IMG/VR virus record: IMGVR_UViG_3300005613_000045
Coordinates: 1-64,000 of that record
From: a virus
Direction: 5' to 3' (one strand)
Length of the DNA: 64,000 nucleotides
The notes below the pieces were generated by a model. It was not told where the DNA came from and made no database searches. It was given only the letters and a program-made list of their open reading frames with translations. A program made the position numbers and the translations under genes. The first letter of the stretch is position 1; every line of letters starts with the position of its first letter. Below, piece after piece: positions 83-55,944 of the stretch.

Positions 83-192
83 ACATACTCGCATGCACAC
101 ATACTCGCATGCACACATACTCGCATGCACACATACTCGCATGCACACATACTCGCATGCACACATACTCGCATGCACACATACTCGCATGC
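83..192. repeat. Tandem array of about 7 copies of a 16-bp unit (ACATACTCGCATGCAC)
   Basis: Head-to-tail identical units are directly visible at 83-98, 99-114 and onward; the last copy degenerates. The region is non-coding. Confidence 0.9.
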
Positions 193-249
193 TGTCTATA
201 ATGTATGATATACAGTATATGCAAACGATTATATTCTAGCTTGGAATAC

Positions 250-340
250 TTCGCATAACCATCGACTTCGCATAACCTATGGTTATGCGAAAAAAGAGCG
301 CAAACGCTCGTCCAAATGGTTATGCGAAAAGGTTATGCGA
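250..340. repeat. Cluster of 10-bp GGTTATGCGA motifs: three direct copies and two inverted copies (TCGCATAACC)
   Basis: TTCGCATAACC at 250-260 and 267-277; GGTTATGCGA at 280-289, 318-327 and 331-340. The arrangement is iteron-like. Confidence 0.8.
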
Positions 341-573: not shown

Positions 574-619
574 GAGTCAGGACGAAATCAATAATGTACT
601 AGGACGAAAGACAACAATG
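574..619. repeat. Two imperfect 22-bp direct repeats (AGGACGAAAnCAAyAATGTACT) about 60 bp upstream of a consensus promoter
   Basis: aggacgaaatcaataatgtact followed by aggacgaaagacaacaatgtact; operator-like placement. Confidence 0.7.
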
Positions 620-676
620 TACTTGGATAGAAATCAGCGAGAATATTTTTTATCGACAAATTAGTCTAGATGAGTA

Positions 677-705
677 TTGACACGAGATAGTTTGTGTGCT
701 ATGAT
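677..705 (+). promoter_or_regulatory. sigma70-type promoter TTGACA-N17-TATGAT
   Basis: Exact -35 hexamer at 677-682, a 17-bp spacer, and TATGAT at 700-705. It lies upstream of the first rightward gene (ATG 784). Confidence 0.6.
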
Positions 706-2771: not shown

Positions 2772-3002
2772 ATGGCAATGATTACGCTACGCAAATATGA
2801 AGATGCGTTGGAAGATGTTGTAAAAGCATTTGATCTTATGGAATATCAGCAAAGAAAAGCTTTTACACCTGCGTTGGATAATTTGTTTTGGGCTATTACT
2901 TCGGATCTGTATGAGTTGAAGCAACGTTTAGAAGAAGAGATTGAGGCAGAGGAAGAAGATAGTCGTGAAGCAGAACTAGAGGATTATGACTACGAAGACT
3001 AG
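2772..3002 (+). CDS. Hypothetical small acidic protein
   Basis: 76-aa ORF. Confidence 0.5.
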   Translation: MAMITLRKYEDALEDVVKAFDLMEYQQRKAFTPALDNLFWAITSDLYELKQRLEEEIEAEEEDSREAELEDYDYED

Positions 3003-3576
3003 ATTTTGGGTTTCGATACTTTGTAGTATGCTAGTACTGTCTTTGTCTGCAACAGGCTACGCATTTATTAAACTAAATGCAGCAAATACTGCAAAGTTAC
3101 CCAGCATTCAAGAACAAGAACGAGGTTTGGTTTTTACTAAAGAGAATCAGCTTGTGCGTATATTGACTCCAGGACGATACAAGTTGCAAGCTAAAGAAGA
3201 TTATGTCAAGATAATTTCAATCGCAGACAGGTTCATTACTTTCCAAGATGATACCATAAGAACTGCAGAAGATATTCTTTATACCGTACAAGTTGTGTTG
3301 GTATATCATCGAGAAGATACAGAAGAAAGCTTGTTTGGACTTTGGAGAAGATACCCTGTAGAATCCACACAAGATTTTTTATTGGATGAATTGGTAGAAG
3401 ATATGTTAGCTGTTGCTGTAAAGCTGTCAGCAACAACGCTGACAGCCGAAGAAACTTTTTCAGCGGAAGGAATAAAAACTTTGAGTAGGCGTATTGATGA
3501 ACGACTCACCCCTGTGTTGGCTGCTCGTGGTTGTGTGTTGGTAAAAATAGAAATTAAAAATTTGTTTCAGGAGTAA
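2986..3576 (+). CDS. Membrane-anchored protein with an N-terminal signal/TM segment; possibly SPFH/band-7-like
   Basis: Hydrophobic N-terminus (FWVSILCSMLVLSLSATGYA). The domain call is weak. Confidence 0.55.
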   Translation: MTTKTRFWVSILCSMLVLSLSATGYAFIKLNAANTAKLPSIQEQERGLVFTKENQLVRILTPGRYKLQAKEDYVKIISIADRFITFQDDTIRTAEDILYTVQVVLVYHREDTEESLFGLWRRYPVESTQDFLLDELVEDMLAVAVKLSATTLTAEETFSAEGIKTLSRRIDERLTPVLAARGCVLVKIEIKNLFQE

Positions 3577-3588
3577 GGATACTACCTA

Positions 3589-3861
3589 ATGAAAACGAAA
3601 CGAGAACTATTGAATCAGGCAGCAAAGAGCTATGTGAATGATGCTCATTACGAACTTCCTGTAGTTGATATGTATATTGATGTGCATAGTCCTGTAACGA
3701 TCTCTATTCCTAGCTGTCCTATCTGTGGTAAAGCTCATGCTAACCTTGTCTGCATTCCTGTGAATCATCCACAGAAAGGATGGACACACGAAGTTCCTTG
3801 TCCTAATAGTCCTGATGATATTCTTTTGTTTTCTTTCGAACACGAGTGTCTTGATAGTTAG
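3589..3861 (+). CDS. Small Cys/His-rich protein
   Basis: 90-aa ORF with CPICGKAH...C...H...CPNSPDD, RBS-like AGGAG upstream. Confidence 0.5.
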   Translation: MKTKRELLNQAAKSYVNDAHYELPVVDMYIDVHSPVTISIPSCPICGKAHANLVCIPVNHPQKGWTHEVPCPNSPDDILLFSFEHECLDS

Positions 3862-3873
3862 GAGTGCTAAATA

Positions 3874-4119
3874 ATGTATGACTTGGAAGAAAGATATTCT
3901 CAATGTTTGATGGATCTTGATAAAGAAATAGAACAGCATATTAAATGTGATAAAATAATTTGGGGGCTGGAAACAGATCTTCAAATTACTTTAGATGATT
4001 TTTATGGTGTGCTCGACGCTTTAAAAGATTTAGTTTTTGAATTGTCTGATCCTAATTATTCTGAATCTGCTCAAGTTACTGCGTCAAAAATTCAGCACAT
4101 AATTTCATCGAATAGATAG
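3874..4119 (+). CDS. Hypothetical protein
   Basis: 81-aa ORF. Confidence 0.5.
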   Translation: MYDLEERYSQCLMDLDKEIEQHIKCDKIIWGLETDLQITLDDFYGVLDALKDLVFELSDPNYSESAQVTASKIQHIISSNR

Positions 4120-4130
4120 TCTATACTGAT

Positions 4131-4159
4131 TTGACAAAGAGTTTTGGTAGTGCTATATT
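4131..4159 (+). promoter_or_regulatory. sigma70-type promoter TTGACA-N17-TATATT
   Basis: Exact -35 at 4131-4136, 17-bp spacer, TATATT at 4154-4159. A GAGGAGGAG RBS and ATG 4187 follow. Confidence 0.6.
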
Positions 4160-4186
4160 ACTCGTATTCTAAGTGAGGAGGAGTTG

Positions 4187-4426
4187 ATGATAACTTACAA
4201 GCCAACGATGAATGAGGTTTATCGAGATGCGATGGATGATATTTATGATTTAGCTGATCTGTTAAGTGGGTTAGCTGTACACAGTAAAACAGAACATCGC
4301 ATTATTACCTTACGTTATGCACTTAAAAATTTAGAGTTTGTTTCTAGTTGCGTTAGAGAGTATCTTGAAGCTGCTACAGGAGAAACATTTAATGGACAGG
4401 ACAGTGAGGAAGAACTCGTCAGCTAA
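4187..4426 (+). CDS. Hypothetical protein
   Basis: The ORF is 4184..4426; 4187 is the ATG after the RBS. Confidence 0.5.
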   Translation: MITYKPTMNEVYRDAMDDIYDLADLLSGLAVHSKTEHRIITLRYALKNLEFVSSCVREYLEAATGETFNGQDSEEELVS

Positions 4427-4931
4427 TATATTTATTATTGTAGGTTTACTTTTTATAGTTTATCAAATACTAAAAACTTTTCTACTTGCGCCTATGACAT
4501 TAGTATCTGAACCAAGTATAGTAGAAGCAGAGATTGTTAATAATCTGGATGATTGGGAAGTAGGCGAACCACTTTGTGCGGAGATGATTACGCCTCAATC
4601 GCTTGGACCACGAGCAGGTGAAACAGTGCATGTTCCTGGTATAGGACCTGTGATTTGTGGAGAACACGCACAGGAGAGACATGGTGTGGAAGCTTTGCAA
4701 GCGCGTAGTGCGATTATGACAGGTGGTGGAAATAGGTACGACTGTGGAGATGGGCGTCAAAGAATTCTAAAACAATTGGGTCCTAAATCTGTAGCGATAA
4801 TGATTGTGGAACAGGGTGTGGAAGTAAGTTGTTTTATTAGCTCTAAAAGCTGGGAGAGGATGATGCGAGTGATTGCACGAGATGACTGTTCTCCTCCTCA
4901 AACACCTGAAGCTGGTATGGTTTTAAATTAG
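4392..4931 (+). CDS. Hypothetical protein with one N-terminal TM helix
   Basis: ORF 4338..4931. There is no start codon after the upstream stop until ATG 4494, so the start is taken as the internal ATG 4392. Confidence 0.45.
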   Translation: MDRTVRKNSSANIFIIVGLLFIVYQILKTFLLAPMTLVSEPSIVEAEIVNNLDDWEVGEPLCAEMITPQSLGPRAGETVHVPGIGPVICGEHAQERHGVEALQARSAIMTGGGNRYDCGDGRQRILKQLGPKSVAIMIVEQGVEVSCFISSKSWERMMRVIARDDCSPPQTPEAGMVLN

Positions 4932-5154: not shown

Positions 5155-5637
5155 ATGTTTGTAGTTTATGCTTCTAATTTTATCAGTAATAATAGACCCA
5201 TCGCTGCTTTTTCTGAGGATGGTCCTGAACTGCAATCATTTTTAGAGATGACTGGATTAGATCAAGAAGATCATAGCGAAGTAGTTCAGGAACTTGTAGT
5301 AGATGAACTTAAAAATTATATGAGTCTTGGTCTTAAATTGTACATGGTAGAAACTGATGGAGAAGACTATTGGCGCATTGATGAACTTTCTGATACTCTT
5401 GATGAGTATATGTCATATGCTCCTGGAGAGTTTAAGCCTGTAGATAGTTATGAAGTTACTAACATTCTTGAAACATATTTTCTAGTAGGTTCTGTGTGGG
5501 CTATAGATAAAGAATACGCAGAAAAGAAGTTTCGCTGGATATTGGAAGAGATAAAGAAAAATAACAGGTGGGTTGACGGTTATATGTATCAATCTACTTG
5601 GCCCTATCAAAAGACTATTGGAGGAGATTTTGATTAA
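5155..5637 (+). CDS. Hypothetical protein
   Basis: 160-aa ORF. Confidence 0.6.
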   Translation: MFVVYASNFISNNRPIAAFSEDGPELQSFLEMTGLDQEDHSEVVQELVVDELKNYMSLGLKLYMVETDGEDYWRIDELSDTLDEYMSYAPGEFKPVDSYEVTNILETYFLVGSVWAIDKEYAEKKFRWILEEIKKNNRWVDGYMYQSTWPYQKTIGGDFD

Positions 5638-5896: not shown

Positions 5897-6475
5897 ATGG
5901 CTTTGACAGAAGCACAGCAAGAACAAGCCAGGGAAATGTATTCGAATAATATTTCTGTGCGAGAGATTTGTTCAGCACTGGATACACCAGAAGGTGCGGT
6001 ATATGCTTTCTTTTCTTCTTCTAATCTTCCCTCTCTCAGGGAAGTAGCGAGGAAACAAGTACAAGATACAATTTATAAATTGTATCTTTCTGGACAAAAG
6101 CTTTCTTATAAAGAGATTGCAAAACTTGTAGGACGATCTTCTTCGCATGTATGCAGAGTAATTAAAAAATACGAGGCTGGAGAAGAGACACTTTCACCTG
6201 ATTCTGGTGTGGTTTTACCTGTAGTAAGAAAAAGTAAACAAGCCAGACTAAAAGAAAAAGTTCGTTGTTGTATGTGTGAATTGCTACAAAGTAAAACTAT
6301 AACGCTTAGTTATTCTTCTTTTTGCTTGTGTCACGAATGTCTTATGGCTGTGGTAAAATATCCTTATAAGGATTGGTCAGCCTATCTGACTGAAGATATG
6401 CTTAGAGAAGTGTTGGATGATCCTGTTTCTTTAAGAGCAGTAGAGTATTATAAGACACTACAACCTGTTCTATAA
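5897..6475 (+). CDS. HTH DNA-binding protein with a C-terminal Cys-rich region
   Basis: Two HTH-like segments (ISVREICSALD..., YKEIAKLVGRSSSHVCRVIKK) and a C-terminal CCMC...CLCHEC. Confidence 0.55.
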   Translation: MALTEAQQEQAREMYSNNISVREICSALDTPEGAVYAFFSSSNLPSLREVARKQVQDTIYKLYLSGQKLSYKEIAKLVGRSSSHVCRVIKKYEAGEETLSPDSGVVLPVVRKSKQARLKEKVRCCMCELLQSKTITLSYSSFCLCHECLMAVVKYPYKDWSAYLTEDMLREVLDDPVSLRAVEYYKTLQPVL

Positions 6476-6482
6476 TAATTAT

Positions 6483-6554
6483 GCTGGTATAACTTAATGG
6501 TAAAGTAACCACCTTGTAAGTGGTGGAGTGTAGGTTCAAGTCCTACTACCAGCT
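6483..6554 (+). tRNA. tRNA-Thr (anticodon UGU)
   Basis: Folded by hand: acceptor GCTGGTA/TACCAGC, D stem ACTT/AAGT, anticodon stem ACCAC/GTGGT with loop CTTGTAA, T arm GTAGG-TTCAAGT-CCTAC. No encoded CCA. Confidence 0.85.
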
Positions 6555-6702: not shown

Positions 6703-8415
6703 GTGAAAATAAAAAATATTTTATATTTGCTTATTGTTTTATTTTTAGTTTCTTGCCAAGCAACGCCTACACCTACTGCAGTTCGACAAACATCTTTGCC
6801 TCTACACAAAGCGATTCCTCCGAAGATTGGTCAGATGTTTGGTGTAACTCCTCCTAAAGATAGTATTTGGACAACTTGGGTTCCTTGGACAGATGTAGAA
6901 GCTTACGCAGGAGCTTTGTATAACTGGGATGCGGTAGATAAAAAACTAGCGTTAGCTGAGGAGTCTGAATCAACTGTGCAGTTCCAGATTCTTTTTTATA
7001 CCAGCGATATTAATTCGTCAGGTACAAAATATTTTATTAACTATACACCTTCTGGGTATGATAAAGGGTATGAGTTGACTAGCGGAAATCTGAGCGCAAC
7101 GATTCCTGCTTATGATAGCCAAGCATGGAGAAACGCTTACTGGAAAATGATTCAAGCTTTTGCAGAACGTTATGATAATGATCCTCGTCTTAATAGTTTT
7201 GTAATTGCCGTAGGCATAGATGGTGAAACACAGTGGATTAAAGACGCTGGAGCCGATTGGCAGGTAGAAGCTCGAAAGATTAGTGGACTGGAATACAGGT
7301 ACGGACAGTTTGTTTATCTCTCTATGGATCAGGCAGCAGGAGTATTTAACAACACTCGCTTGTTTTTGAATAATGCTCCTGGAGGAAATGCCCGTATAGA
7401 TCGCGCACGGTATGCTGCAGATCGAGGAATTGGTCTAAAGCATAGCGGAATGCTTCCTGATATTAATAGTGCTAAAGGTTATGGAGAGCAAATTGGTTCT
7501 TGGGATGCAATGAATGCGTTTCAAGGACAGACCCCCCTGTGGTGGGAAAGTGCTTATGGTTTGGGTGATGCAAGCACAAGATACTTTGGGTATTATGCTG
7601 GATTGACTTTTCATCCTGCAGCAATGGATGTTCATCCAGAGTGGATCACACAGATAGATCCTATCTTCAAGCTGTGGGTAGAAGATCATTTGGGTAAAAC
7701 AATTAGTACCACACCTAGTGTGTGGTGTGTTTTACGAGATAAAGAATATCCTAAAGTTATGTGGTCTAGTACAGAAGGTGTTAGCGGATGGCCAGGAAAC
7801 TTTAATTACTGGATGACTGTTGAAGGTGCGCAGATTGTAGAACGTAAAAATATTCCAGGAAATAATACAGCATGGCAAGCAAGGCAGGCTGGTTATATTA
7901 CTGAAGCCTCTGTGGATGTAAATGACAAGTTCACCAGAGAAAAATATTTTTTAAAGCTTATCCTTCAAACGACTGAGGATAGTTCTCTTACTGTAAGTTG
8001 GCATGGAAATTCTTATGAACTTCCTCTGGATCAAAGAGCTTTGAACTCTTGGGAAACTTTTATTATTCCTCTAGAAGATTTCACAGTGGACAGCGCAAAA
8101 GATATTGTGCTAGAAGGAAAAGCTTATGTACATCTGATCGAGGTGTATGGTGATAGTAATATTGTTATGCCAACAGTTACGGCACTTCCTACAACCACTG
8201 TGCGTCCTACGAATACAATCATTCCTACAAGCACCGTTATTCCAACTAGAACAATTATTCCTACAACAACCAGCATTGTAATTAAAACTACAACACCACG
8301 ACCTACTTCAACCAAAACAATTAAAGAAGATATGAGTGAGCTTAAGAAAAGAATTTATAATGAGTGGGGATTGCTTGTAGAATTTCAGCTTGTAGTAAAT
8401 ACAGATAGCCGCTAA
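6703..8415 (+). CDS. Secreted lipoprotein-like protein with a C-terminal Thr/Pro-rich linker; putative polysaccharide hydrolase
   Basis: GTG start with a GGAG RBS; signal peptide plus LVSC lipobox-like motif. The linker PTVTALPTTTVRPTNTIIPTSTVIPTRTIIPTTT is encoded at about 8160-8310. Enzymatic class not established. Confidence 0.65.
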   Translation: MKIKNILYLLIVLFLVSCQATPTPTAVRQTSLPLHKAIPPKIGQMFGVTPPKDSIWTTWVPWTDVEAYAGALYNWDAVDKKLALAEESESTVQFQILFYTSDINSSGTKYFINYTPSGYDKGYELTSGNLSATIPAYDSQAWRNAYWKMIQAFAERYDNDPRLNSFVIAVGIDGETQWIKDAGADWQVEARKISGLEYRYGQFVYLSMDQAAGVFNNTRLFLNNAPGGNARIDRARYAADRGIGLKHSGMLPDINSAKGYGEQIGSWDAMNAFQGQTPLWWESAYGLGDASTRYFGYYAGLTFHPAAMDVHPEWITQIDPIFKLWVEDHLGKTISTTPSVWCVLRDKEYPKVMWSSTEGVSGWPGNFNYWMTVEGAQIVERKNIPGNNTAWQARQAGYITEASVDVNDKFTREKYFLKLILQTTEDSSLTVSWHGNSYELPLDQRALNSWETFIIPLEDFTVDSAKDIVLEGKAYVHLIEVYGDSNIVMPTVTALPTTTVRPTNTIIPTSTVIPTRTIIPTTTSIVIKTTTPRPTSTKTIKEDMSELKKRIYNEWGLLVEFQLVVNTDSR

Positions 8416-10364: not shown

Positions 10365-10443
10365 CAATTTATATTTAAAGCAGTAAAGTGTATTTACAAT
10401 AAAGATTATCCATCCTCCTTACGGTGTGTGGTTTCTCCCAGAT

Positions 10444-10484
10444 AAAGCCTGAGAGTCCTCTCCTCTCAGGCTTTGTCGTGTTTT
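10444..10484 (+). terminator. Rho-independent terminator
   Basis: 12-bp perfect stem AAAGCCTGAGAG/CTCTCAGGCTTT with a 7-nt loop, followed by GTCGTGTTTT. Confidence 0.7.
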
Positions 10485-10488
10485 ATAC

Positions 10489-10517
10489 TTGACACAGTTG
10501 GCGCATACTGATATGAT
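10489..10517 (+). promoter_or_regulatory. sigma70-type promoter TTGACA-N17-TATGAT
   Basis: Exact hexamers with a 17-bp spacer, immediately after the terminator. A GGAGGAG RBS and ATG 10559 follow. Confidence 0.65.
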
Positions 10518-10558
10518 GCAATTGTGATAAGTATACATAATCTTGGAGGAGATTTATA

Positions 10559-10942
10559 ATGTCTCAGACAAGCATCATCGAAGAAAAATATAAAGCTTGG
10601 TTAGGGACACCTCAAAGGCTTCGTCCAGCAGGACTGACAACGAAGAATCAGTTTGCTAAGAAATTTGATATAGACCCTGAAACGTTGGAACTCTGGCAAT
10701 TGCAACCTCGCTTTTGGGATGATGTCTTTGCTTCTGCTCGTAGTATTATTGGTTCTGAAATGTCTTCTATTATGGAAGCACTTTTGGAACGAGCGGAGGG
10801 TGGTAGCGTACAAGCTATCAAACTTTGTTTGGATCTATTGGGTGTGCATTCTGATAGTTTGGAATTGACTCACTCATTTAAGAATGATCAACTTGTACTT
10901 GTGTATGGTAACGCAGAAATTCCTAGCGAAGAAGAGGAGTAA
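10559..10942 (+). CDS. DNA-binding protein, candidate small terminase subunit
   Basis: 127 aa. It sits one small gene (10946..11353) upstream of the large terminase, is the first gene after the promoter, and has an acidic C-terminus. Confidence 0.4.
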   Translation: MSQTSIIEEKYKAWLGTPQRLRPAGLTTKNQFAKKFDIDPETLELWQLQPRFWDDVFASARSIIGSEMSSIMEALLERAEGGSVQAIKLCLDLLGVHSDSLELTHSFKNDQLVLVYGNAEIPSEEEE

Positions 10943-11358: not shown

Positions 11359-12873
11359 ATGCCTAACTATTTTAAAGTTAGAAAAAATTTAGAGCCTTTT
11401 TTTAACTCCTATGCCCGTTTTTTACTGTTAGCTGGCGGCGTGGGTTCAGGCAAAACGGCATCAGGATCTGTGCTTGCTGTTAAAAAGATTGGGGAAGGTA
11501 AGGATGGTATTATAGTATCTCCTGACTTTCCCCAGCTTTCTCGTGCTACATGGCCAGAATTTATCAAATGGGCACCAATGTCTCGCTGTATCAATGCTCA
11601 CCTAGACCATCCATTCACACAGAAGAAGCAACTAAAATTTAATGTGAATGGTAAGATTGTTACCGTCTACTATGGTGGTATCGAAGATGAAGAAGGTTGG
11701 GCAGGTCCTAACGTAAACTGGGCATGGTTCGATGAAGGTGGTCGTAAGAGAACCAAGCGTGCTTTTGAAGTTCTCTCTGCTCGTATTCGTGTAGGCGATA
11801 ACCCCCAACTTTTTGTTACTACCACACCTGCAGGTACTTCACACTGGTTGTATGATATTTTTGTAAAGCAGGATTTTCCAGAAGAAGTATTACAAGCTCT
11901 AAAAGATTCTGGGTATGAAGGAAATCTTGCAGAATATATCCATGTAAAGACAGAAGAGAATAAAGAAAACCTCGATCCTTTCTATTATCTCTCTCTATCA
12001 AGTATGTATAGTGGTAAGGCAAAATCTCAGGAACTAGAAGGACAGTTTGTTTCGGCTGAGGGTGTGGTCTGGGAAAATCTGGACATGAACGAGGGTGGAA
12101 GAAACTGCACTGTGGATGCAGATTATGTTCCTGGAGTTCCTGTAGAATGGTGGGTGGACGACGGTTTTACTGAAGGACACCCTAGAGTTATGCTATTCGC
12201 TCAAGTAATTCCTCCTTACATTAATGTTTTTGATGAGCATATTAGTCTAGGAAAACTTCCAGAAATTTCTATTGCAGAAGCATTAGAAATGCCTTATAGT
12301 AAACCTACGATTGCTTATGTTGACTCGGCTGCTGCAGAATTAAGATCTCGTATTTGGCTTACAGATATTGATACAGTTTCGGCAACACACTCTGTAGAGG
12401 AAGGTATTAAACGTACATCATCCTGGATCTGTGATGCTAATTATGTAGGACATCTAAGATTTCATCCTCGTTGTACTTTCTCTCGTAAACAGATGCCTAA
12501 CTATTTTAGAGATCCTAAAACACAAAAGCCTATTAAAGATATGGATGACGTATCTGATGCAGTGCGTTACGGACTGTGGACAAAAGATAGAGAAACTATT
12601 TGGAATTCTATTACACCCAATTATACAAAATTGCTTATGGATCGTCGTGGTGTAGCAGATCAATTAGCAAAAGAAAAAGAAGAAGAACGTCTTCAACAAA
12701 TAGAAAATGATCCTTTGTCGCATTTATCTCCTTCTGGTATTATTACTCCAGAAGGACTCGATAAATTATACGCACAGCAGATAAGAGCTTCTAAAGCAGG
12801 ACATAACAGAAGGCAAGGTATGTATAATCCTACGATGGAAGATCTTATGAATCTTATGGAAGGTCGTTTATAA
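11359..12873 (+). CDS. terL: Terminase large subunit (ATPase plus nuclease)
   Basis: Walker A LLAGGVGSGKTASG and Walker B WAWFDEGG; 504 aa, typical size; sits before the portal. Confidence 0.85.
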   Translation: MPNYFKVRKNLEPFFNSYARFLLLAGGVGSGKTASGSVLAVKKIGEGKDGIIVSPDFPQLSRATWPEFIKWAPMSRCINAHLDHPFTQKKQLKFNVNGKIVTVYYGGIEDEEGWAGPNVNWAWFDEGGRKRTKRAFEVLSARIRVGDNPQLFVTTTPAGTSHWLYDIFVKQDFPEEVLQALKDSGYEGNLAEYIHVKTEENKENLDPFYYLSLSSMYSGKAKSQELEGQFVSAEGVVWENLDMNEGGRNCTVDADYVPGVPVEWWVDDGFTEGHPRVMLFAQVIPPYINVFDEHISLGKLPEISIAEALEMPYSKPTIAYVDSAAAELRSRIWLTDIDTVSATHSVEEGIKRTSSWICDANYVGHLRFHPRCTFSRKQMPNYFRDPKTQKPIKDMDDVSDAVRYGLWTKDRETIWNSITPNYTKLLMDRRGVADQLAKEKEEERLQQIENDPLSHLSPSGIITPEGLDKLYAQQIRASKAGHNRRQGMYNPTMEDLMNLMEGRL

Positions 12874-23549: not shown

Positions 23550-25907
23550 ATGAAACTATTCCTTAATCCTCCTGCAAAGAAAAAAGAAAAGCTAGGTAGT
23601 GGTGTCGATGTTGTAGTTTATCAAATGACTAAACATCTACAAGAAATAGCTAATGTATTTCTTGTCCCTACTGTGGATGAAGCAGATATTTTTGCTACAC
23701 ATATTTCTGCTGAAGGATCTCGTCCTGCAGATGTTCTTCATTGTCATGGTCTCTATCCTACACAGGATAGAGAATCTGATAAATGGATGTGGAAAATTAA
23801 CCAGCTTGTTATCGAGTCTGCTAAGAAAGCTGTGTTGGTTACAGTTCCTTCTCCTTGGGTAGCTGAAATTTTTCAACGAGATATGGGATTCACACCAGAA
23901 ATTATTCCTCATGGTTTAGATTTAGCAGAGTGGAAACCTAGAACTCTAGGGCAAACACCTACTATTTTGTGGAATAAGAATAGAAATTCTGATGTCTGTA
24001 ATCCTGATCCTGTTAATGAGATCGCTGCTATAGCTAAGGATCTTTCTTTTGTATCTACCTTTGGTAAAGCTACACCTAACGTGAAAATTGTAGGCTCTAT
24101 GCCTCATCCACAAATGAAAGAGCTTTTATACCAAAGTGGGATTTATCTCGCTACAACAAAAGAAACTTTTGGTATAGGTATTCTTGAAGCTTTGATTTGT
24201 GGACTACCTGTGCTGGCTTGGAATTATGGTAATGCTCCTTACCTCGTACAGCATAAAGTCACAGGATATATTGCACAGCCTGGAGACTACCAAGATTCTG
24301 TTGCAGGCTTGCATTATATCACAGAGAATTGGGAAGAACTTTCCAAGAATGCTCAAGCTTACGCTAAAAGATTTTCTTGGAAAGAGGTTGCACTCCAATA
24401 TTTGCGTGTGTATGAAAAAGCCCTAGAAATTAAAGAAGAAGAAAAAGTAGGGCGTGTCAGCTTTGTTATGCCTTGTCATAATTATGGACAATGGGTAGGA
24501 GAAGCTATCCATTCTGTGCGTAATCAAACACGAGCAAACATTGAATGTATTGTTATTGATGATGGGTCCACAGATAACTCCTATGAAAAAGCTCTCGAAG
24601 CTGCAGGAGATGACCCACGAATTCGTGTGATTAAGCAAGAGAATCAAGGTGTAGCAGCTACAAGAAATCGTGGAGCAATGCTTGCTAAAGGTCCCTTCCT
24701 TTCTTTTTTGGATGCTGATGATAGACTGAGACCAGAATTTGTAGAGCGTCTTTTACCTGAACTTCAGGCAGATCGTTCTCTCGGTATCTCTTATGGTAAA
24801 CTAGCCATCATGGATAAGGATGGTAATACTACAGGACAAGCAAGAGATTGGCCAGAAGATTACTCCGCAGATAAGCAACTACAAAAGCAGAATAGAATTC
24901 CTGCTTGTTGTCTTATGCGCAAAGAAATCTTTTTACGCACAGGTGGGTTCAGACAGCATACAGCACCAACAGAAGACGCCGAACTGTGGGCACGCTTTGC
25001 ACTTATCGGATATAGAGGAAAGCTTTCTACAATTAAACCTGTGTATGATTACAGGTTGCATGGTAATAGTGCTTCTACAAGTTTGCAAGGTAAACCTGCG
25101 CCTGATTGGACAAGCTGGTTGGCTGCAGCTAATGGTGGAAAGGTTCCCTTCGCTGCAGAAGTTTCCAAAAAAGAAGCCTCACACCCTGTGTTAGATTATG
25201 ATCAACCTTTTATTTCTTTTATTATTCCTGTGGGTCCTGATCATGTTAAACATCTGCAGAGAGCTTTGGAATCAGTTGCTGGGCAGACATTACCTACATG
25301 GGAAGCTGTGGTTATTGATGATACAGATGAAGGTGATCTTAAAAAGCAAGGAAGTATTCCTTACGAGATTGCTTATCCTTGGGTAAGATGGGTAAGAAAT
25401 ACAAAGCTGCATAATGTGAGCGCTGCAAGAAACCAGGGGGCGGCTGTAGCTAGAGGAAAGTATCTTTGCTGCTTGGACGCTGACGATTATATCTATCGTG
25501 ACTTCATGGCAGGTATGAAGAACGTCTTGGACTATTGCGAAGGCGATGCACGTATTGTATACTCTGATTGGGTATCAATGCCTAATGGAGAAGTACATAA
25601 AGCGGAAAACTGGAACATTCAAAGACTTAAAGATCACGCTCTTTTCGCAGTTACTTTTGCAGTTCCTCGTTCAGCTTATTTTCAAGTGGGTGGTTTTGAT
25701 GAATCACTCGATCTCTGGGAAGATTGGGATTTTACAATCAAGCTTGCTCTTGCGGGATATGTAGGTATTCGTGTACCGAAACCTTTGTTTGCTTATTGTT
25801 ATGATACAGGAGAGCGGCGAGAGCAGAGCCTAGAAAATAAAGATAGATTGTTTAAAGCAATTCGAGGAGAATACGAAGCAGTTATTCCTGCAGCAAGGCG
25901 TGGTTGA
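23550..25907 (+). CDS. Three-domain glycosyltransferase: GT4/GT1-like (E-x7-E) plus two GT2 domains
   Basis: ETFGIGILEAL is the GT4 EX7E motif. First GT2 domain: VSFVMPCHNYGQW...VIDDGSTDNS...FLDADD. Second GT2 domain: ISFIIPVGPDH...VVIDDTDEG...CLDADD. 785 aa in total. Confidence 0.75.
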   Translation: MKLFLNPPAKKKEKLGSGVDVVVYQMTKHLQEIANVFLVPTVDEADIFATHISAEGSRPADVLHCHGLYPTQDRESDKWMWKINQLVIESAKKAVLVTVPSPWVAEIFQRDMGFTPEIIPHGLDLAEWKPRTLGQTPTILWNKNRNSDVCNPDPVNEIAAIAKDLSFVSTFGKATPNVKIVGSMPHPQMKELLYQSGIYLATTKETFGIGILEALICGLPVLAWNYGNAPYLVQHKVTGYIAQPGDYQDSVAGLHYITENWEELSKNAQAYAKRFSWKEVALQYLRVYEKALEIKEEEKVGRVSFVMPCHNYGQWVGEAIHSVRNQTRANIECIVIDDGSTDNSYEKALEAAGDDPRIRVIKQENQGVAATRNRGAMLAKGPFLSFLDADDRLRPEFVERLLPELQADRSLGISYGKLAIMDKDGNTTGQARDWPEDYSADKQLQKQNRIPACCLMRKEIFLRTGGFRQHTAPTEDAELWARFALIGYRGKLSTIKPVYDYRLHGNSASTSLQGKPAPDWTSWLAAANGGKVPFAAEVSKKEASHPVLDYDQPFISFIIPVGPDHVKHLQRALESVAGQTLPTWEAVVIDDTDEGDLKKQGSIPYEIAYPWVRWVRNTKLHNVSAARNQGAAVARGKYLCCLDADDYIYRDFMAGMKNVLDYCEGDARIVYSDWVSMPNGEVHKAENWNIQRLKDHALFAVTFAVPRSAYFQVGGFDESLDLWEDWDFTIKLALAGYVGIRVPKPLFAYCYDTGERREQSLENKDRLFKAIRGEYEAVIPAARRG

Positions 25908-36724: not shown

Positions 36725-38349
36725 TGGCAGAACTTCGTACCACTCAAGTAATCGCAGAAGTTGAACTTGGACCAGAGCTTCGCACAACACAGGTGGTTGC
36801 AGAAGTTGAGCTTGATTTAAATTTTCGCACTACTTCTATATCTCAATTTCTCCTAGAAATAGATTTTGGTCTGTCCGCAGGAGTATCTAGACTTTCGCAA
36901 TTTATGCTTGAAATAGATTCTGATTTTACTCCTGTCCTACCTGCATCTGTGTCGCAATTTCTGATAGAAATTGATGACACAGGAGTCGATACCACAAAAA
37001 CTCAAGATGATTTTAATTTACAGGCGCTTGTAGTAGACCCTACAACTACGAGTAGCTTCTTTACGCTTGCAGCCAAAGTAAAACCTACTTCTAAACACAG
37101 TGGGGTATTTAATTTACAAGCGTATGTAGAAGAAGCTACCAAAGAATTTTATCTTGCAGCCAAAGTTCGTAAAGAGATTCCTACAGTTACAGAATATTAC
37201 CCAGACTTTGAAGGTCCTTATGAAGTACGTTTGCTGGATCACGATCTCTCATTAGTTCGTGTACTTGAACGATTTGAGAGATTAGATTTTACTCGTGCTG
37301 TGAACGGTAAAAATTATAATGGGTATGGTTCTTTTACTTATACAGCAGCAGCAGATCTAACAAACATAGATGAGTTTACGCTGGATCGCATTATCGAAGT
37401 GCGTAGAATGTCTACCACATATGGTGCTGTACCTGTGTTTCAAGGACTTGTACGCTTTAAGAACATAACCATCAATGAAGACGATCATAAAAAATTATTC
37501 ATCTGTGCTGGTCCAGATCTTAGACACTTTATGAAGCGTCATATTATTATTCCTGATGAAGATCAAGCTTTCTTGTCTTTATCAGAACCTTTTGTTGACA
37601 TAATGCACGATATAGTTTTTCGTAACTGCAGCGTCTATACTGCAGGTACGAGACAAATGCCTGGGATTTTTCCAGGAACTTTTTCTGGTTATGGTATTCC
37701 TCTTAACCTAAACTTTAGATATTCTAAAGTGAGTGATGAGTTAGATAATCTAGCTAATGTTGCTGAAGGTGCTGATTGGGATGTCTTTATCTATAATAGC
37801 GCTCCAGATTATATAACCTTTGAAACTTTCTATCCGTTCAAAGGACGAGACAGGCGCACAAACACTGTGCAAGGTTGGCCAGAAATGGTTTGGTCTCTAG
37901 ACCGTGCCAATATTGTAGGACCTTCTTACACAGAGGATCGTGTGGATGAGGTTACTGTGACGTATGTTGCAGGAGAAGGGGTAGGAGTTGAACGCGCAAT
38001 AGTAGAACGGTATAATGTAGCAGATAGACAAAACGATTCGCCTTGGAATAGAGTAGAAGAATTCATTGATGCTAGTTCTGAAACATCAGAAGCAGTTCTA
38101 AAAGCTCAAGGTGATGCTAATAACGTTGAGCATGGTATGGTTAGAACATTCTCTGTACAAGCAGCGCAAAAAGAACTTTTAAGCTATGGAACGAAATGGA
38201 ATCTTGGGGATATTACCACAGGGGTGTTTGATTTAGGTGGTACTTTTGATATGCGTGTGGTAGAAGTTCGAGAGATTCTTGATCCTGGAGAAGGACATAT
38301 CGCTGTCTATCCTACGTTCTTTATCTATCCTAGACTGGAAGATTATTAA
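36724..38349 (+). CDS. Tail/baseplate protein with short N-terminal peptide repeats
   Basis: N-terminus carries ELRTTQV[IV]AEVEL twice and SQF[LM]LEID three times; 541 aa. Confidence 0.55.
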   Translation: MAELRTTQVIAEVELGPELRTTQVVAEVELDLNFRTTSISQFLLEIDFGLSAGVSRLSQFMLEIDSDFTPVLPASVSQFLIEIDDTGVDTTKTQDDFNLQALVVDPTTTSSFFTLAAKVKPTSKHSGVFNLQAYVEEATKEFYLAAKVRKEIPTVTEYYPDFEGPYEVRLLDHDLSLVRVLERFERLDFTRAVNGKNYNGYGSFTYTAAADLTNIDEFTLDRIIEVRRMSTTYGAVPVFQGLVRFKNITINEDDHKKLFICAGPDLRHFMKRHIIIPDEDQAFLSLSEPFVDIMHDIVFRNCSVYTAGTRQMPGIFPGTFSGYGIPLNLNFRYSKVSDELDNLANVAEGADWDVFIYNSAPDYITFETFYPFKGRDRRTNTVQGWPEMVWSLDRANIVGPSYTEDRVDEVTVTYVAGEGVGVERAIVERYNVADRQNDSPWNRVEEFIDASSETSEAVLKAQGDANNVEHGMVRTFSVQAAQKELLSYGTKWNLGDITTGVFDLGGTFDMRVVEVREILDPGEGHIAVYPTFFIYPRLEDY

Positions 38350-40838
38350 TGCCCAATAACGATCCTATGATTCGGCAAACAAAAAGAACAAGCACAATCC
38401 AACGAGGACTTGTTACTAAAGAAATTCCTTCAGTCAACCTGTGGAATGCTTCTGCTATAACTTTATCTCCTGGAGATGTTGTTATTCTTTCTGACACAGA
38501 TGAAAAATCTGTAGTAACTACAACAACTGCAGGTGCTGCGAATCCTTTGATCGTACTTATTGGTGCTGCTCCTGGTGAGCTTGTTAAATGTATTGTCCCT
38601 GGTTCTGGTGCTGCTGCCGCCTTGTGTGGTGGTGTAGCTATTGCTCCTGGGGATACTATTATTACGTCAACTTCCGCAACGTACGGTAAAAAATTAGAGA
38701 CTGAAGATGCTTCAGGATCTTTAGGTACTGCGATTTCAGCAAAAGCTGCAGGTGTTACTTCTCTAGTATCTGTTTTGCTACATGATAGCGTAGCACTTTA
38801 TAGTTCTGGTGGTGGGGGTAGTCCTGACCCCTCCACGATTGACCACAATTTGCTGTTAAATACACATAACCTTACAACAGATATAGATCATAACTTAATT
38901 ACAAATACGCATAATCTTACCACTGACATAGATCATAACTTAATTACAAATACACATAACCTTACAACAGATATAGATCATAACTTAATTACAAATACGC
39001 ATAATCTTACAACAGATATAGATCATAACTTAATTACAAATACGCATAATCTTACCACTGACATAGATCACAATCAACTAACAAACTATGAGGCAGATGA
39101 ACATGTTCCTCTTGATGATGCTGCAACAGATGATGCACATGTCTGGTCTGCAGAGCAAATTCAAGATGCTATTGATTTAACAGAACACAATACGCTAGGT
39201 GGTTTGCAGGGCGGTACAGCAGGAGAATACTTCCATCTTGCAGAAGATCAATATAATATACTTACTGATGGAGACGCAGTTGTAGATATTGCTGATGATC
39301 AACATGTTCATCAGCTTATACCTAATTCCATGACAATAAATGCCGTTAGTAGTATAAACGAACCAGCACTGTTAAATGTTCATCATTCTGGTGTAGGAAA
39401 TCCTACAGCTATTTTTGGGTCGCTCAGTACTTTATACACTGGTCCAGGAACTTTATTTATTGACAATAATAAAATAGGTATAGGTTATTATAATGATGCG
39501 GATGATGCTTCATTTTATTTAAATAATTCTGGTTATTTAGGGGGAATAAGTCGTTATCGTAACTTTATTATAGGAGATGGTAAAAACTCTCCGTTATCTT
39601 CTTGGAGTGGTTCTGGAGCTACTTTAGACCATGTAATTGAAATGTCAATTACTCCTCCAGCGATTGATCAAGTTCCTCTTACAATACAAGGACTAGCAGG
39701 ACAAACTGCAAACTTGCAGGAGTGGACTGACAGTACGCCAACAGCCCTAGCAAAAGTAGGGCCAGATGGTACCCTTACTACCCCAGCCATTGCTGGTGTG
39801 GGCAGTATAGGAAACGCAGGTCCTATAAGTATTCAGGCTGTGGGAGCCCCAGGGACAGAGGTAGTCTTCAATGAGCTCGGGGGAGACATAGATTTCAGAG
39901 TCGAGGGAGATACGGTATCAAATCTATTTTCTGTGGATGCGAGCACAGATAGGATTGGCATCGGTGTATCTACTCCTCAAGCGTTGCTTGATATAACTAA
40001 TACAGATACAGATCTTGTGGGTCTAGCCATCAATAGTAATTCTACAACACAACCTTATCTTTATATGAATGGACCTGCACCAGAAATTAGGTGGCGAGAT
40101 AGTGCCGCATCAGGAACTCCTCTTGCAAGGATGCTGGGGGATAGTGGTAATATGGTTTTTGAGTCTGATTCATCAGACGAGATAGCCGGTAGCTACATGG
40201 CTTTTACTATTGATGGCGCAGAAAAGATGAGGCTAGATGTCAATGGCAGAGTCGGTATTGGCACGGACGCGCCGAATGCCGATCTGGAGGTCATCGACTC
40301 AGGAGCGTCGGGCTTAAACGTTACCAAGTACACCACGACGGGCCAGGGCGCTTATAACGTCACTAGAACGGCAAGAGGCACAGAAGCGTCGCCAACCGCA
40401 TTGCAGAATGTTGACGCGCTTGGTTACTACTTGTTCAAGGGACATGACGGCGTCGGGTTTTACACCGGAGCCTATTTGCAAGCTGCAGCGTCTCAAACAT
40501 GGCAGGCTGGAAAGCATGGTACACAATACGAGTTCTTTGTCACGCGCAATGACACAACAGCTAATGTTAGTAGAATGCGTATCACAAATGATGGTCTCGT
40601 AAGTATAGGCAACTCGCTAACACCCGTTGCACAATTCCATGTCGATCAGGCAAACAATATAGCGGCTATTCCTGTGCTGATTCTCGATCAAGCAGATTTG
40701 AGCGAGGAGATGATTGAATTTGATACCACAGTAGGCGCTGGGTATCCCGTAGATACAGCAGCTATAGGGACTTATTACGGCAAAGTTCGTGTAAGTGTTA
40801 ATGGAACATTCAAGTACATACCATTATATAATTCGTAG
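38349..40838 (+). CDS. Tail fiber protein with 15-aa tandem repeats and a compositionally distinct C-terminal segment
   Basis: 829 aa; Gly/Ala-rich N-terminal part; (IDHNLITNTHNLTTD)x5; many G/S/T stretches; ends just before the holin-like genes. Confidence 0.65.
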   Translation: MPNNDPMIRQTKRTSTIQRGLVTKEIPSVNLWNASAITLSPGDVVILSDTDEKSVVTTTTAGAANPLIVLIGAAPGELVKCIVPGSGAAAALCGGVAIAPGDTIITSTSATYGKKLETEDASGSLGTAISAKAAGVTSLVSVLLHDSVALYSSGGGGSPDPSTIDHNLLLNTHNLTTDIDHNLITNTHNLTTDIDHNLITNTHNLTTDIDHNLITNTHNLTTDIDHNLITNTHNLTTDIDHNQLTNYEADEHVPLDDAATDDAHVWSAEQIQDAIDLTEHNTLGGLQGGTAGEYFHLAEDQYNILTDGDAVVDIADDQHVHQLIPNSMTINAVSSINEPALLNVHHSGVGNPTAIFGSLSTLYTGPGTLFIDNNKIGIGYYNDADDASFYLNNSGYLGGISRYRNFIIGDGKNSPLSSWSGSGATLDHVIEMSITPPAIDQVPLTIQGLAGQTANLQEWTDSTPTALAKVGPDGTLTTPAIAGVGSIGNAGPISIQAVGAPGTEVVFNELGGDIDFRVEGDTVSNLFSVDASTDRIGIGVSTPQALLDITNTDTDLVGLAINSNSTTQPYLYMNGPAPEIRWRDSAASGTPLARMLGDSGNMVFESDSSDEIAGSYMAFTIDGAEKMRLDVNGRVGIGTDAPNADLEVIDSGASGLNVTKYTTTGQGAYNVTRTARGTEASPTALQNVDALGYYLFKGHDGVGFYTGAYLQAAASQTWQAGKHGTQYEFFVTRNDTTANVSRMRITNDGLVSIGNSLTPVAQFHVDQANNIAAIPVLILDQADLSEEMIEFDTTVGAGYPVDTAAIGTYYGKVRVSVNGTFKYIPLYNS
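38838..39077 (+). repeat. 45-bp tandem repeat, about 5.3 copies, inside the tail fiber gene
   Basis: Units alternate between two near-synonymous DNA variants: ...aatacgcataatcttaccactgac versus ...aatacacataaccttacaacagat. Confidence 0.9.
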
Positions 40839-44412: not shown

Positions 44413-44496
44413 TGAGGTGGGAGGGATTTGAACCCTCATGGCGTTTCCGCCAGCGGCTTTTAAGGCCGCCATGTCTACCAATTCCATCACCACCCC
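44413..44496 (-). tRNA. tRNA-Leu (anticodon UAA), type II with a long variable arm
   Basis: Reverse complement folds as acceptor GGGGTGG/CCACCTC (one G-U pair), anticodon stem GCGGC/GCCGC with loop CTTAAAA, 15-nt variable arm, and T arm GAGGG-TTCAAAT-CCCTC. Confidence 0.85.
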
Positions 44497-44780: not shown

Positions 44781-47700
44781 TTAATCCTCTTCTACAATAA
44801 GAGAACCCCAACGATAACCACGTTCTGCTTCTACAGGAAAAGGAATCGTATCACCATAAAGTTCTGCCGCTGTGCCTTCCATACACTTGCTAAGTTCGTG
44901 TACTGCGTCCTCTGCATCTTCTTCAGGAACACAGGCTGTGATACTATCATGGACTGTCATGCGCACTGAGAGACCTAGTTTATCTAAGGCGATGATAGAC
45001 GCAAGTGTAGCATCACTAGCAGAGCTTTGGGGAATCATATTGATTGCCTGTCTGAAAATTTCTGATACTCGATAGCGATCATTCTTTACATAAACAAGCT
45101 CAGGAAATCTTCTCTTTCTACCAAGCAGAGATTCAACATACCCTTGTTCGAGTACAAGCTGCTTTACTTTCTCGTTATATTCTACCACCTTGGGCATTTT
45201 TGAAAAGAAAGCTGAAGCAATCTTGTGGACAATTTCAGGATCTACACCATGTGTACCGTCACGCTGTAGTTTATCCTCAGATGCTCCATAAAGCAAAGCA
45301 AAGTTAAAAGTTTTTGCAGAAGAGCGATTGGCTTTTGTATAGTCATCTCCCCAACCATCTCGTGCAGTTTCTCCGTGCAAGTCTCGTCCTTCTCGATAGC
45401 AATTAATCAGATAAGGATCTTGAGATAGTAGAGCAATTGTTCTATATTCGATTTGACTATTACAAGTAAATACACCGCAACTTAAAGCAAAATTATGTTG
45501 ATCATCTACAGTAATAGCTCGCATAGGTTGTAGACCCACAGGTTGAATATCTATAATTACATGATTTTTACCGCCCCTTCGTGCTGTGTCATAACATTCT
45601 CTAGAACAATATTTTTTAGTATTTCCTTTTGTAACATAACACTCTTTACCACAGATGGGACAAACTACGAAAGTTCCAGAACGTTTTCCGTAATTAGGAT
45701 TATTTTTTCCAACATACGAACGACGATTTTTAATTCCTTCTCTAAGATTGTTTAATCTTAATGTGTGATCTTGTTCAGCGTAATTTTGTTTACCGTGTTC
45801 AGACCAGTGTTTTTTAGCATTCACATATGTAAGATTATCTGGCAGATTATTTTGTCTATTTCCGTCTTTATGGTGTACATGCGTATTTTTATTACGTTTT
45901 CCAAACAAAGTTTCAGCTACAAGTATATGTTCTTTTATATAATCAGTTGCATGAGTAGTATATAAATGAACATAACCATTACGAGGATTAACGTACCTAT
46001 TAAAAGGAAGAAGACGATCTCCTATGGTCAGATTTTCTGTTGTTCGTTCTTCGATAGGATGATAGCGCCGACCTTTTCCTGTTTTTATTAACCACTTGTG
46101 ATCTTTAGAAGCAATAATAGATTCTCCATTATCTAACGTTATACGAAAACTCTCTAGCATTCCTACATTTACTTCTTTTGTTACCAAACCTGCGCACACT
46201 TTATGATCATCTACAGAATAAACACGCTCTCCAACATGAATATCTTTTAAAGGTTTGGCTCCTTCAAAAGTTTCTACAAGTGTTTCTGGATGAAGACAAA
46301 AATCGGCCTCTACAAAGACAGATCCTAAATCAGCAATAAACAAATTACGAATATCTGTTTTTGCCTCTTTATTCCTGCTAGGCTGGTTTTGTAGATTTGG
46401 CGTTGAGGATGACAGCCTTCCTGTGACTGTACCCGCAAGGTTAAAGCTTGTGTGTACTCTACCATCAGCAAGCATAGAGTTTTGTAGTCCTGTGACGTAT
46501 CGAGATGAGATAGTATAAGCTTCTCGATAATCCAGTAACATACGCACAAACTCGTGCTGATTTTCTAGCATAGATAGAACAGTCTTTGCATTTGTAGAAC
46601 GTCCATCTATCTCAGGCAAACCTAACTCATCAAAAAGAATATGCGATACTTGTTGTGGTGATCGTGGGTTAAATTCATGACCACAACATTGTTCCATTTG
46701 TTTATAAGCATCAAGAGCTTTTGATTCATACTTTGGAATAAGCGTTTGAAGAAGTTGCTGATCTAATAAAATACCCTTCGCTTCAGCATTAGAAAGCGCC
46801 AACACTCCAGGCATAAGAAGATTCTTATATATCCAAACCAACTTCTCTTGTGGTTTAAGCATCTTGTGCAGTTCCCACGTCATTACTCGCTGCCAATAAC
46901 CGTCATTTGCTGTATAAGTATGTAGCATTTGTGTAGGCATAGCAGAGTAATCAACATCTTTTCCTGTAAAAAACTCTTTCACAGGAGTATCCCAATCAGG
47001 AGCGCGAAACATAGCAGCACAAATTTCTTTAGCTCCATGCGTACCTTGTCGCTCATCAAGCAAGTAATGAGCAAGAAGCGTATCATACTTGAAATCAAGC
47101 GTAACACCCAATTGCAGACGAATAAAGTTGCGATCAAACTTTACGTTATGCCCAGACCAAGCTACTTGTGGACTTGCTTTTTTCAAAGCTTCTGCAAAAC
47201 CCTGTGAATAGATCACATGTTCTGGAATGAGATAAACTAACTCATCTTCACTTGGAGCCATTACAAGCAGAATAATTTTACCTGATACAGGATCAAGAGA
47301 ATTTGTTTCAATATCCAGAACACAGAAAGAATTTTGTTGTGCCTTACGCAATACCATATCATAATCTTCTGTGAGCACATACTTAACTTCTTCAGGATTC
47401 GGAGGACGCACATCAAAAATATCTGGATTCAGAATAGCATGTACATATTTTAGATCAGCCGTAATATCTGCAAGCAAACGATTGTTTTTCATAACAGCGC
47501 CTGGATGCACAGTAGGAATAACCTCTACTCGATAACTATCTCCATCTTTTACAGGGATGTCGATAGTTTTTCTGATGCCTCTGCGCTTAGTGATTCCAGG
47601 ACCCTTACCCAGCAGATTTTTTGTAGCCAGATTACCTAGCGTAAGCACAAGCTTTGGTTTAAGGGAAGCAATTTCATCCAGCAATCTGTCTTTACATAAT

Positions 47701-55396: not shown

Positions 55397-55944
55397 ATAT
55401 TTTGTACTCGTTCAGGCATAATATCTAGAAGAGCATCTACAGAGTTCCCAATGTCTACGATTAAAGATTTCTCAGTGAGCATTCCACCAGCCGTAGCCAA
55501 CATTGAAACTGCCAGACGAATCATATAGTAAAGCATTTCTCTTGAAGGTATCTGTTTATTAGATTTATAAAAGATCTCTGTATTTTCAAACAGTTTCAAA
55601 CTATGCAGAGCAATTCCTCGTTGGGCTGTCTCGATATAATCATATCCCCAAGAAAGTAACACACCATAAGTAGCCATGTATACAACAATCTCTGCAAAAT
55701 CATCACAGAGTAGGTCTTCTTTAGGTAGAAGGATGTGAAGAATTTCGTGAGTCAGTGCATACATTCGATACTCTGTGTGTTGGTCAGCAGGAAGTACGAT
55801 TGATTTGAAAAGCTTTCCTGTATTCAAACCACCTGTGTCTTTTGGTAAAACTTTATAAATAATTTTGTATCCGAGCAGAGTAGCAATCTTTTTTAATTGT
55901 TCAAATAGCTCTACTTCTGGAATCCTGTTAACTGTTTTACTCAC
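55384..55944 (-). CDS. ImmA/IrrE-like (DUF955) HExxH metallopeptidase
   Basis: YALTHEILHILL matches the AHELGHxLLH zinc-binding motif. Confidence 0.5.
   Translation of the reverse strand: MSKTVNRIPEVELFEQLKKIATLLGYKIIYKVLPKDTGGLNTGKLFKSIVLPADQHTEYRMYALTHEILHILLPKEDLLCDDFAEIVVYMATYGVLLSWGYDYIETAQRGIALHSLKLFENTEIFYKSNKQIPSREMLYYMIRLAVSMLATAGGMLTEKSLIVDIGNSVDALLDIMPERVQNIWQK

Follow-up and report, generated by a model that had tools for sequence, protein, structure and literature searches.

Clustered short repeats are characteristic of several kinds of cis-acting site in phages and plasmids. Iteron origins with auxiliary banks of repeats are known from P1 (oriR/incA), F (oriS/incC), and phage P4, where the alpha primase-helicase binds ori and crr; in plasmids P1 and F, the arrays flank rep in an ori-rep-inc arrangement. 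In lactococcal phages (c2, 936, and P335 groups), origins with many direct and inverted repeats are located in the non-coding DNA that separates divergent promoters. In phage c2, the origin reportedly occupies the intergenic region between the divergent early and late promoters. Terminase recognition sites include lambda cosB (R3-I1-R2-R1), where gpNu1 binds R3-R1, the pacL and pacR boxes of SPP1, which are bound by G1P, and the hexamer repeats of P1 pac. Tandem-repeat centromeres are exemplified by parC of R1 (11 bp, 10 copies), parC of pSK41 (20 bp), and tubC of pBtoxis (12 bp, seven copies).

We analyzed 64,000 nucleotides of IMG/VR virus record IMGVR_UViG_3300005613_000045 (positions 1 to 64,000; hereafter, the window), which derive from a novel tailed phage without a close cultured relative. 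Megablast against the GenBank phages (INPHARED release) yielded no near-identical DNA, and TerL is at most 26% identical to that of any phage in this collection. The plus-strand genes extend from 784 to approximately 41.6 kb, starting with about 10 kb of small unknowns, followed by a TerS-like gene, TerL, and structural genes. The minus-strand genes, from 42.2 kb to beyond 64 kb, constitute a replication block encoding an SNF2 helicase, a family-A DNA polymerase, an 850-aa primase-like protein (48241-50793), SSB, Sak4, an exonuclease, and ThyX. The TerS-like protein (127 aa; 10559-10942, plus strand) matches Pfam HTH_Tnp_1_2 at 7.7e-5 and a PHROG small-terminase family at 1.1e-3, TerL (11359-12873, plus strand) is of the Terminase_6N/Terminase_3 type, and a double-HTH protein is encoded at 5897-6475 (HTH_23 at 8.7e-10). 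PDB sequence searches with the primase-like, HTH, and TerS-like proteins gave nothing useful.

Positions 1-783 form the sole large non-coding stretch in the 64 kb, with all remaining gaps below 200 bp. An initial annotation had placed here a gene-free stretch of about 780 bp that genes leave rightward from a consensus promoter, and both statements are borne out. The first called gene, encoding an 83-aa protein with Cys motifs, is located at 784-1035 on the plus strand and forms the right border of the region. A near-consensus sigma-70-type early promoter (TTGACA-17-TATGAT with TG extension, 11/12 matches) is found at 677-705 (plus strand), just downstream of a 22-23-bp direct repeat present in 2.5 copies (AGGACGAAA..AATGTACT; 579-636, plus strand). 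At the other side, the unique 81 bp preceding the repeats described below contain a perfect 14-bp palindrome, ATCGAATATTCGAT (51-64). Searches of the region against Rfam returned sub-threshold low-complexity matches only, with no family above noise. The region is well-documented but ordinary repeat-rich phage control DNA. We tentatively read it as a cis-acting platform for protein binding, quite possibly a replication origin, whose sites are specific to the lineage. The sequence evidence bearing on an origin, a packaging site, and an operator is weighed below.

Seven head-to-tail 16-mers, CACATACTCGCATGCA, fill positions 82-193 on the plus strand, six of them exact and the last with one mismatch. 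Tandem Repeats Finder reports the array at 82-192 (period 16, 6.9 copies, 100% matches), and a pattern search allowing up to three mismatches recovers seven copies at 82-193, compared to 0.41 expected. The annotated sevenfold array of 16 bp was therefore confirmed by the repeat searches, with its start moved by one base from 83 to 82. The array has a GC content of 50%, alternates between purine and pyrimidine in 96 of its 111 steps, and carries one GCATGC per unit, seven in total. Its units are contiguous, lacking the unique spacers between repeats that define a CRISPR array. A coding repeat was also considered and rejected, as this stretch has no ribosome-binding site and no called gene. The right edge of the array overlaps a weak promoter-like site (TGCACA-17-TATAAT; 174-202, plus strand), which is a consensus match only (10/12 matches).

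The second repeat system is built on the 10-mer GGTTATGCGA, which occurs exactly five times in 64 kb, always within 251-340, compared to a chance expectation of approximately 0.12 over the whole window. The exact copies, two inverted and three direct, lie at 251-260 and 268-277 on the minus strand and at 281-290, 318-327, and 331-340 on the plus strand, in agreement with the five direct and inverted 10-mers seen earlier. These sites are in fact 13-mers, arranged in nested fashion about a perfect palindrome of 25 bp. ACTTCGCATAACC, with the 10-mer motif on the minus strand, is present twice in direct orientation (248-260 and 265-277), followed on the plus strand by two copies of ATGGTTATGCGAA (279-291 and 316-328) and by AGGTTATGCGA (330-340), giving start-to-start spacings of 17, 13, 37, and 13 bp. 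The palindrome, TTCGCATAACC-TAT-GGTTATGCGAA (11+3+11), occupies 267-291 at the center of the cluster and is enclosed by an outer 13-bp inverted pair (250-262 with 316-328). A GC-rich hairpin, GAGCG-CAAA-CGCTC, is located at 296-309; on the minus strand, T6 comes directly after it, so that it resembles a terminator. As single-stranded DNA, positions 240-350 are predicted to fold at -29.1 kcal/mol (z = -8.45). A protelomerase target was discarded as an explanation, since the palindrome has an odd 3-nt center and no protelomerase-like family match was obtained.

The two repeat systems are separated by a 56-bp AT-rich spacer (194-249), with a GC content of 28.6% versus 39% for the genome. This spacer is a candidate melting region, of moderate AT-richness and without 13-mer-type unwinding repeats. 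The 16-mers and 13-mers have the core ACT(T)CGCAT in common, with ACTCGCATG included in the array unit and ACTTCGCATA in the 13-mer. Consequently, nine copies of TCGCAT share one orientation (89-268), and the three copies that follow have the opposite one (285-335).

Under the preferred reading as a replication origin, positions 1-783 would be the visible part of the main non-coding control region, where the rightward gene block starts, and the leftward replication block would be expected on its other side, by analogy with the relatives described below. The five 13-mers (consensus ATGGTTATGCGAA) would serve as putative sites of one sequence-specific DNA-binding protein, probably encoded by the phage. 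Such a protein, sitting on two and three opposed sites around the 25-bp palindrome, may act as dimers or as a higher oligomer, and duplex opening would likely take place in the 56-bp AT-rich stretch. The 16-mer array may represent an auxiliary set of sites that can expand and that have lower specificity for this protein, or a structural spacer, and would change fast by slippage. From this putative origin, the two arms of the genome would be copied outward.

Several features favor an origin. The short repeats are clustered at 82-340 and absent from the rest of the 64 kb, as in iteron origins, and are far beyond chance expectation, and they reside in the only large non-coding region of the 64 kb. 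The layout is origin-like, with an AT-rich stretch between the repeat sets and nested dyad symmetry in the cluster, and the phage has replication proteins of its own (polymerase, primase-like protein, SNF2 helicase, SSB, Sak4, and exonuclease). In addition, the cumulative GC skew increases up to 42 kb, starting at the left edge, and decreases beyond that point, which fits an origin at the skew minimum on the left and a terminus at the point of convergence. However, the skew tracks gene orientation exactly and is fully confounded with it, so that it cannot locate an origin by itself. Further points weigh against an origin: the AT-richness is moderate, inspection of the sequence by eye brought up no DnaA-box-like motif, and no initiator gene adjoins the repeats within the window. 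The genes to the right of the repeats are small unknowns without Rep-like matches, and the closest known replication genes lie at a distance of more than 40 kb.

The locus resembles the P1, F, and P4 origins in its short direct and inverted repeats beside an AT-rich stretch, in its second, related bank of repeats, and in the large primase-like protein that the phage encodes. It differs from these systems in having no recognizable Rep or alpha-type initiator next to the site and in the head-to-tail, perfect, and hypervariable units of its array. The period differs as well: 16 bp corresponds to 1.5 helical turns, out of phase compared to classical iteron origins of 17-22 bp, and the helical phasing of iteron origins (approximately 21-22 bp or multiples of 10.5 bp) is absent here. 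With the lactococcal phage origins, the region shares its extent of several hundred non-coding base pairs at a point of transcription divergence, its several repeat systems, its sigma-70 promoters, and its standing as the only large gap. Unlike in those phages, the origin is putative here, and the two unrelated lineages have no similarity in sequence or proteins.

The same phage was recovered from ENA sample ERZ27256772 as fragmented contigs that are 99.75-99.8% identical to the window; exact-protein look-ups gave matches in this one ENA sample only. Between the two strains, 16 of the 112 array positions differ, all by transitions, versus only 12 differences in the other approximately 11 kb compared. 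The changes form a block in which three to four array units of the ENA strain read CACATACTCACATATG or CACACACTCGCATATG, with TCGCATGCA replaced by TCACATATG in three or four units. The array of the ENA strain contains at least 7.6 units, and its contig stops inside the array. Positions 194-1645, including all 13-mers, are identical in both strains. Because 16 of the 112 array positions differ while 194-1645 is identical, the 16-mer array behaves as a hypervariable variable-number tandem repeat (VNTR), varying in unit number and sequence between close strains, and not as iterons under strict conservation. Given a background divergence of 0.1-0.2%, the fact that the 13-mers are identical is statistically uninformative. 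Elsewhere, the two strains differ in clusters, with seven differences in 24 bp (3163-3186) and sixteen in approximately 145 bp (55766-55909) amid identical sequence, which suggests local recombination patches or hypervariable spots. One ENA contig shows that the genome continues for at least 627 bp past position 64000, where it is still coding.

The variation between nearly identical strains argues against each array unit being a needed specific site of an origin. It also raises the possibility that the array is a functionless slippage minisatellite in non-essential spacer DNA and that the 13-mer cluster alone is functional. The excess of differences in the array would fit this, as would the appearance of the variant units as a homogenized block, the difference in copy number, and the otherwise perfect units, which imply recent expansion. 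We nevertheless regard a functionless array as distinctly unlikely, considering that its unit shares ACT(T)CGCAT with the 13-mers and that arrays with a 16-bp period, of unrelated sequence, recur at the equivalent place in two distant relatives.

These relatives are viral contigs that were found through TerL (50-66% identical TerL, syntenic structural genes). Their early regions are not conserved, and searches with early proteins of the window (192 aa, 570 aa, 260 aa, and gene 1) revealed no relatives in viral or metagenome collections. Closer relatives, in which the TerS-like protein is 70-98% identical, occur only on contigs of at most 5.6 kb that stop short of the region. Two further candidate contigs, L023 and L024, were rejected because they show no relationship with the window. 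The latter (IMGVR_UViG_3300028032_000009) ends in a 51-bp array of 6.6 copies (4-341) upstream of rightward genes, a further case of a viral contig breaking at such an array.

In the three relatives whose contigs could be followed to the start of the plus-strand block (L016, L022, and L025), a repeat-rich non-coding region separates a leftward from a rightward gene block. In L016, an 860-bp non-coding region follows the start of a minus-strand gene at approximately 1904 and contains six copies of a 36-bp motif interleaved with CTGTGCCTCGC-type units, including a 16-bp (better 32-bp) array of 7.9 units (2571-2696). Downstream of this array are TTGACA-16-TATGAT and, as the first gene, the TerS-like gene. 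L022, the contig of L010, has minus-strand genes at 1-990 and then roughly 2 kb of non-coding DNA rich in motifs. Two minus-strand genes (3081-4248) are flanked by an imperfect 16-bp array of 10.4 units (2878-3043), which hold the 14-bp palindrome TGTGCTATAGCACA, and by a perfect 16-bp array of 4.8 units (ATAATCTGTTAACCTG; 4311-4386). Further to the right, L022 has a TTGACA-17-TATGCT promoter, approximately five 10-bp repeats at about 4690-4740 (two exact copies according to Tandem Repeats Finder), and then plus-strand genes. In L025, the contig of L017, minus-strand genes extend to approximately 2576, and the subsequent, shorter non-coding region carries (GCGTGT) in 8.2 copies, TTGCGTCAACG in two, and GGTTTGAG in four. 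Each unit of the perfect L022 array also gives, on the strand that faces the neighboring 132-aa gene, a match resembling a promoter (TTAACA-16-GATTAT); one 16-bp unit can hold both hexamers of overlapping promoters.

The repeats of the relatives are unrelated in sequence to those of the window, and a 16-bp period is common to three of the four genomes (window, L016, and L022). A repeat-laden region at the divergence point is a trait of the lineage, with repeat sequences that are lineage-specific, as expected of cis sites that co-evolve with their binding protein. The recurrence of unrelated repeats at the same divergence point is consistent with the preferred origin reading, and so are the L022 arrays, which flank a small leftward unit of two genes, like the ori-rep-inc arrangement of the P1 and F plasmids. 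Pfam and PHROGs searches with the genes flanking the region in the relatives gave no matches.

In another explanation, the 13-mers and 16-mers would be operators of a phage regulator acting on divergent early promoters, with no direct role in replication or packaging. The perfect 25-bp palindrome is a classic target of dimeric helix-turn-helix proteins, a double-HTH protein is encoded in the window, and promoters are at hand, with the promoter-like site at the array edge and the strong promoter 340 bp downstream. In L022, the perfect array is located inside a 630-bp divergent promoter region, between the leftward two-gene unit and the rightward promoter, and all of its units give promoter-like matches. 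We nonetheless consider operators unlikely. At 340-430 bp upstream of the strong promoter, the cluster is too far away for simple occlusion, and the double-HTH protein is not conserved in the relatives. Moreover, the motifs are absent from the remainder of the 64 kb, including the second promoter of the early type that can be read from the sequence at about 10491-10519.

Alternatively, the region may be a packaging recognition site (pac, cosB, or DTR boundary) near a physical terminus close to position 1, with TerS binding the 13-mers. It has in common with known terminase sites the short sites in both orientations within approximately 100-200 bp, possibly near a genome end, and a TerS-like HTH protein is encoded. 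The opposed sites around a dyad are reminiscent of the cosB R sites, and no pac-like repeat motif is found in or around the TerS-like gene of the window itself. The window starts inside the approximately 1% of the genome that is non-coding, 784 bp before the first gene and with genes directed inward, as would be typical of records with mapped ends. The independent ENA assembly also ends here, inside the array; its contig ends carry little information, because that assembly is broken elsewhere too, with one contig ending in coding sequence.

Against packaging, and at variance with the known terminase sites, the TerS-like gene and TerL lie approximately 10 kb from the repeats in the window, in L010/L022, and in L017/L025. 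A repeat region at the small terminase gene, as is usual for cos and pac sites, is present only in L016, where it immediately precedes the TerS-like gene. The Terminase_6N/Terminase_3-type TerL gives no firm prediction of the end type. Furthermore, the assemblies of three relatives run through the region into leftward genes, although this is still compatible with DTR or cos ends. The initial annotation had called the region the left end; because it is internal to the contigs of these relatives, it is not necessarily a genome end, and the known boundary is that of the window. Taken together, a packaging function is possible but on the whole rather unlikely.

Head-to-tail arrays of short identical units are also typical of centromeres such as parC (R1 and pSK41) and tubC, and the L022 array units, 14-bp palindromes at a 16-bp period, are parS-like. 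The 16-mers could accordingly be imagined as a partition site (parC, parS, or tubC type) of a plasmid prophage, coated by a ParR-, ParB-, or TubR-like adaptor. This is highly improbable: the array sequence is not conserved between strains, and the genome looks virulent, with its own replisome and no sign of a lysogenic or plasmid lifestyle. Pfam and PHROGs searches with approximately 40 proteins from both arms, a subset of all ORFs, detected no ParA, ParM, TubZ, ParB/ParR, integrase, or repressor. Of the three functions offered in the initial annotation, an origin- or packaging-class cis site is supported by the uniqueness of the motifs and the analogous regions of the relatives, while the partition site is unlikely for want of a partition NTPase, adaptor, or integrase among the scanned proteins.

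A more speculative and, in our judgment, improbable scenario is that the fast-evolving arrays with a 16-bp period, unrelated in sequence and placed beside short inverted iterons at the divergence point, represent a new cis element in this lineage. They would then serve either as a landing pad with a periodicity of 1.5 turns, open to coating by a DNA-binding protein specific to the lineage, or as a decoy for a host factor. As a landing pad, they might seed a nucleoprotein filament involved in origin firing or in organizing the genome end. Seven GCATGC sites in a genome otherwise devoid of them would fit either a landing pad or a decoy.

All seven GCATGC sites of the window reside in the 16-mer array (82-193), and the variant units of the ENA strain lose them. 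Across window positions 800-64000, GCATGC is absent where 7.6 would be expected, and other 6-bp palindromes are strongly avoided as well, with no occurrences of GATATC (21.8 expected), ATCGAT (16.6), GCTAGC (11.2), GGATCC (8.8), CTCGAG (8.6), or ATGCAT (8.5). CCGG occurs three times, compared to 16.5 expected. This avoidance suggests a host rich in restriction systems.

The repeats were also sought in other collections. A 16-mer dimer pattern had no matches in viral, metagenome, and genome collections, a three-site 10-mer pattern had none in metagenomes, and a 23-mer had none in genomes. A two-site pattern matched nine unrelated viral contigs, which we regard as chance tandem repeats containing the 10-mer. 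An unrelated prophage-like contig, L009 (IMGVR_UViG_2524614875_000001), carries GGGTTATGCGAAT, an AT-rich hairpin, and ATTCGCATAACCC and ATTCGCATAACC 13 bp apart at 970-1035, which reproduces the motif, the inverted layout, and the 13-bp spacing of the window. This likeness is probably due to chance, since it was the pattern itself that picked out this contig, but a shared family of binding proteins could also account for it. A literature search for the motif strings retrieved unrelated primer matches only.

In this phage lineage, which has no cultured relative, the region stands out as the single obvious cis-acting control region. If an origin or packaging function is true, it would provide a handle for engineering replicons or packaging signals and would help to assign genome ends within the group. 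The 16-mer array, with its rapid change, would be a ready marker for strain typing.

Additional features were observed outside the control region. Directly 5' of the TerS-like gene, a terminator hairpin is followed by a TTGACA-17-TATGAT-type promoter (window 10441-10519), and the same order is found in relatives L010 (approximately 7840-7880), L017 (approximately 4690-4770), and L014 (approximately 5180-5310). From its sequence, this arrangement looks like a conserved start of a late or packaging operon. The family-A DNA polymerase ORF (44781-47999, minus strand; 1,072 aa) contains an HNH-endonuclease segment at approximately residues 636-808, between the polymerase matches, which may be a mobile insertion or an intein-like element. 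In the structural block, a 785-aa protein with glycosyltransferase matches (23550-25907, plus strand) is kept in L016, and an 829-aa ORF (38349-40838) has a 45-nt in-frame tandem repeat of approximately four copies that are 83-89% identical (38838-39085). Finally, the window encodes a tRNA-Thr(TGT) at 6483-6554 on the plus strand and a tRNA-Leu(TAA) at 44413-44496 on the minus strand.
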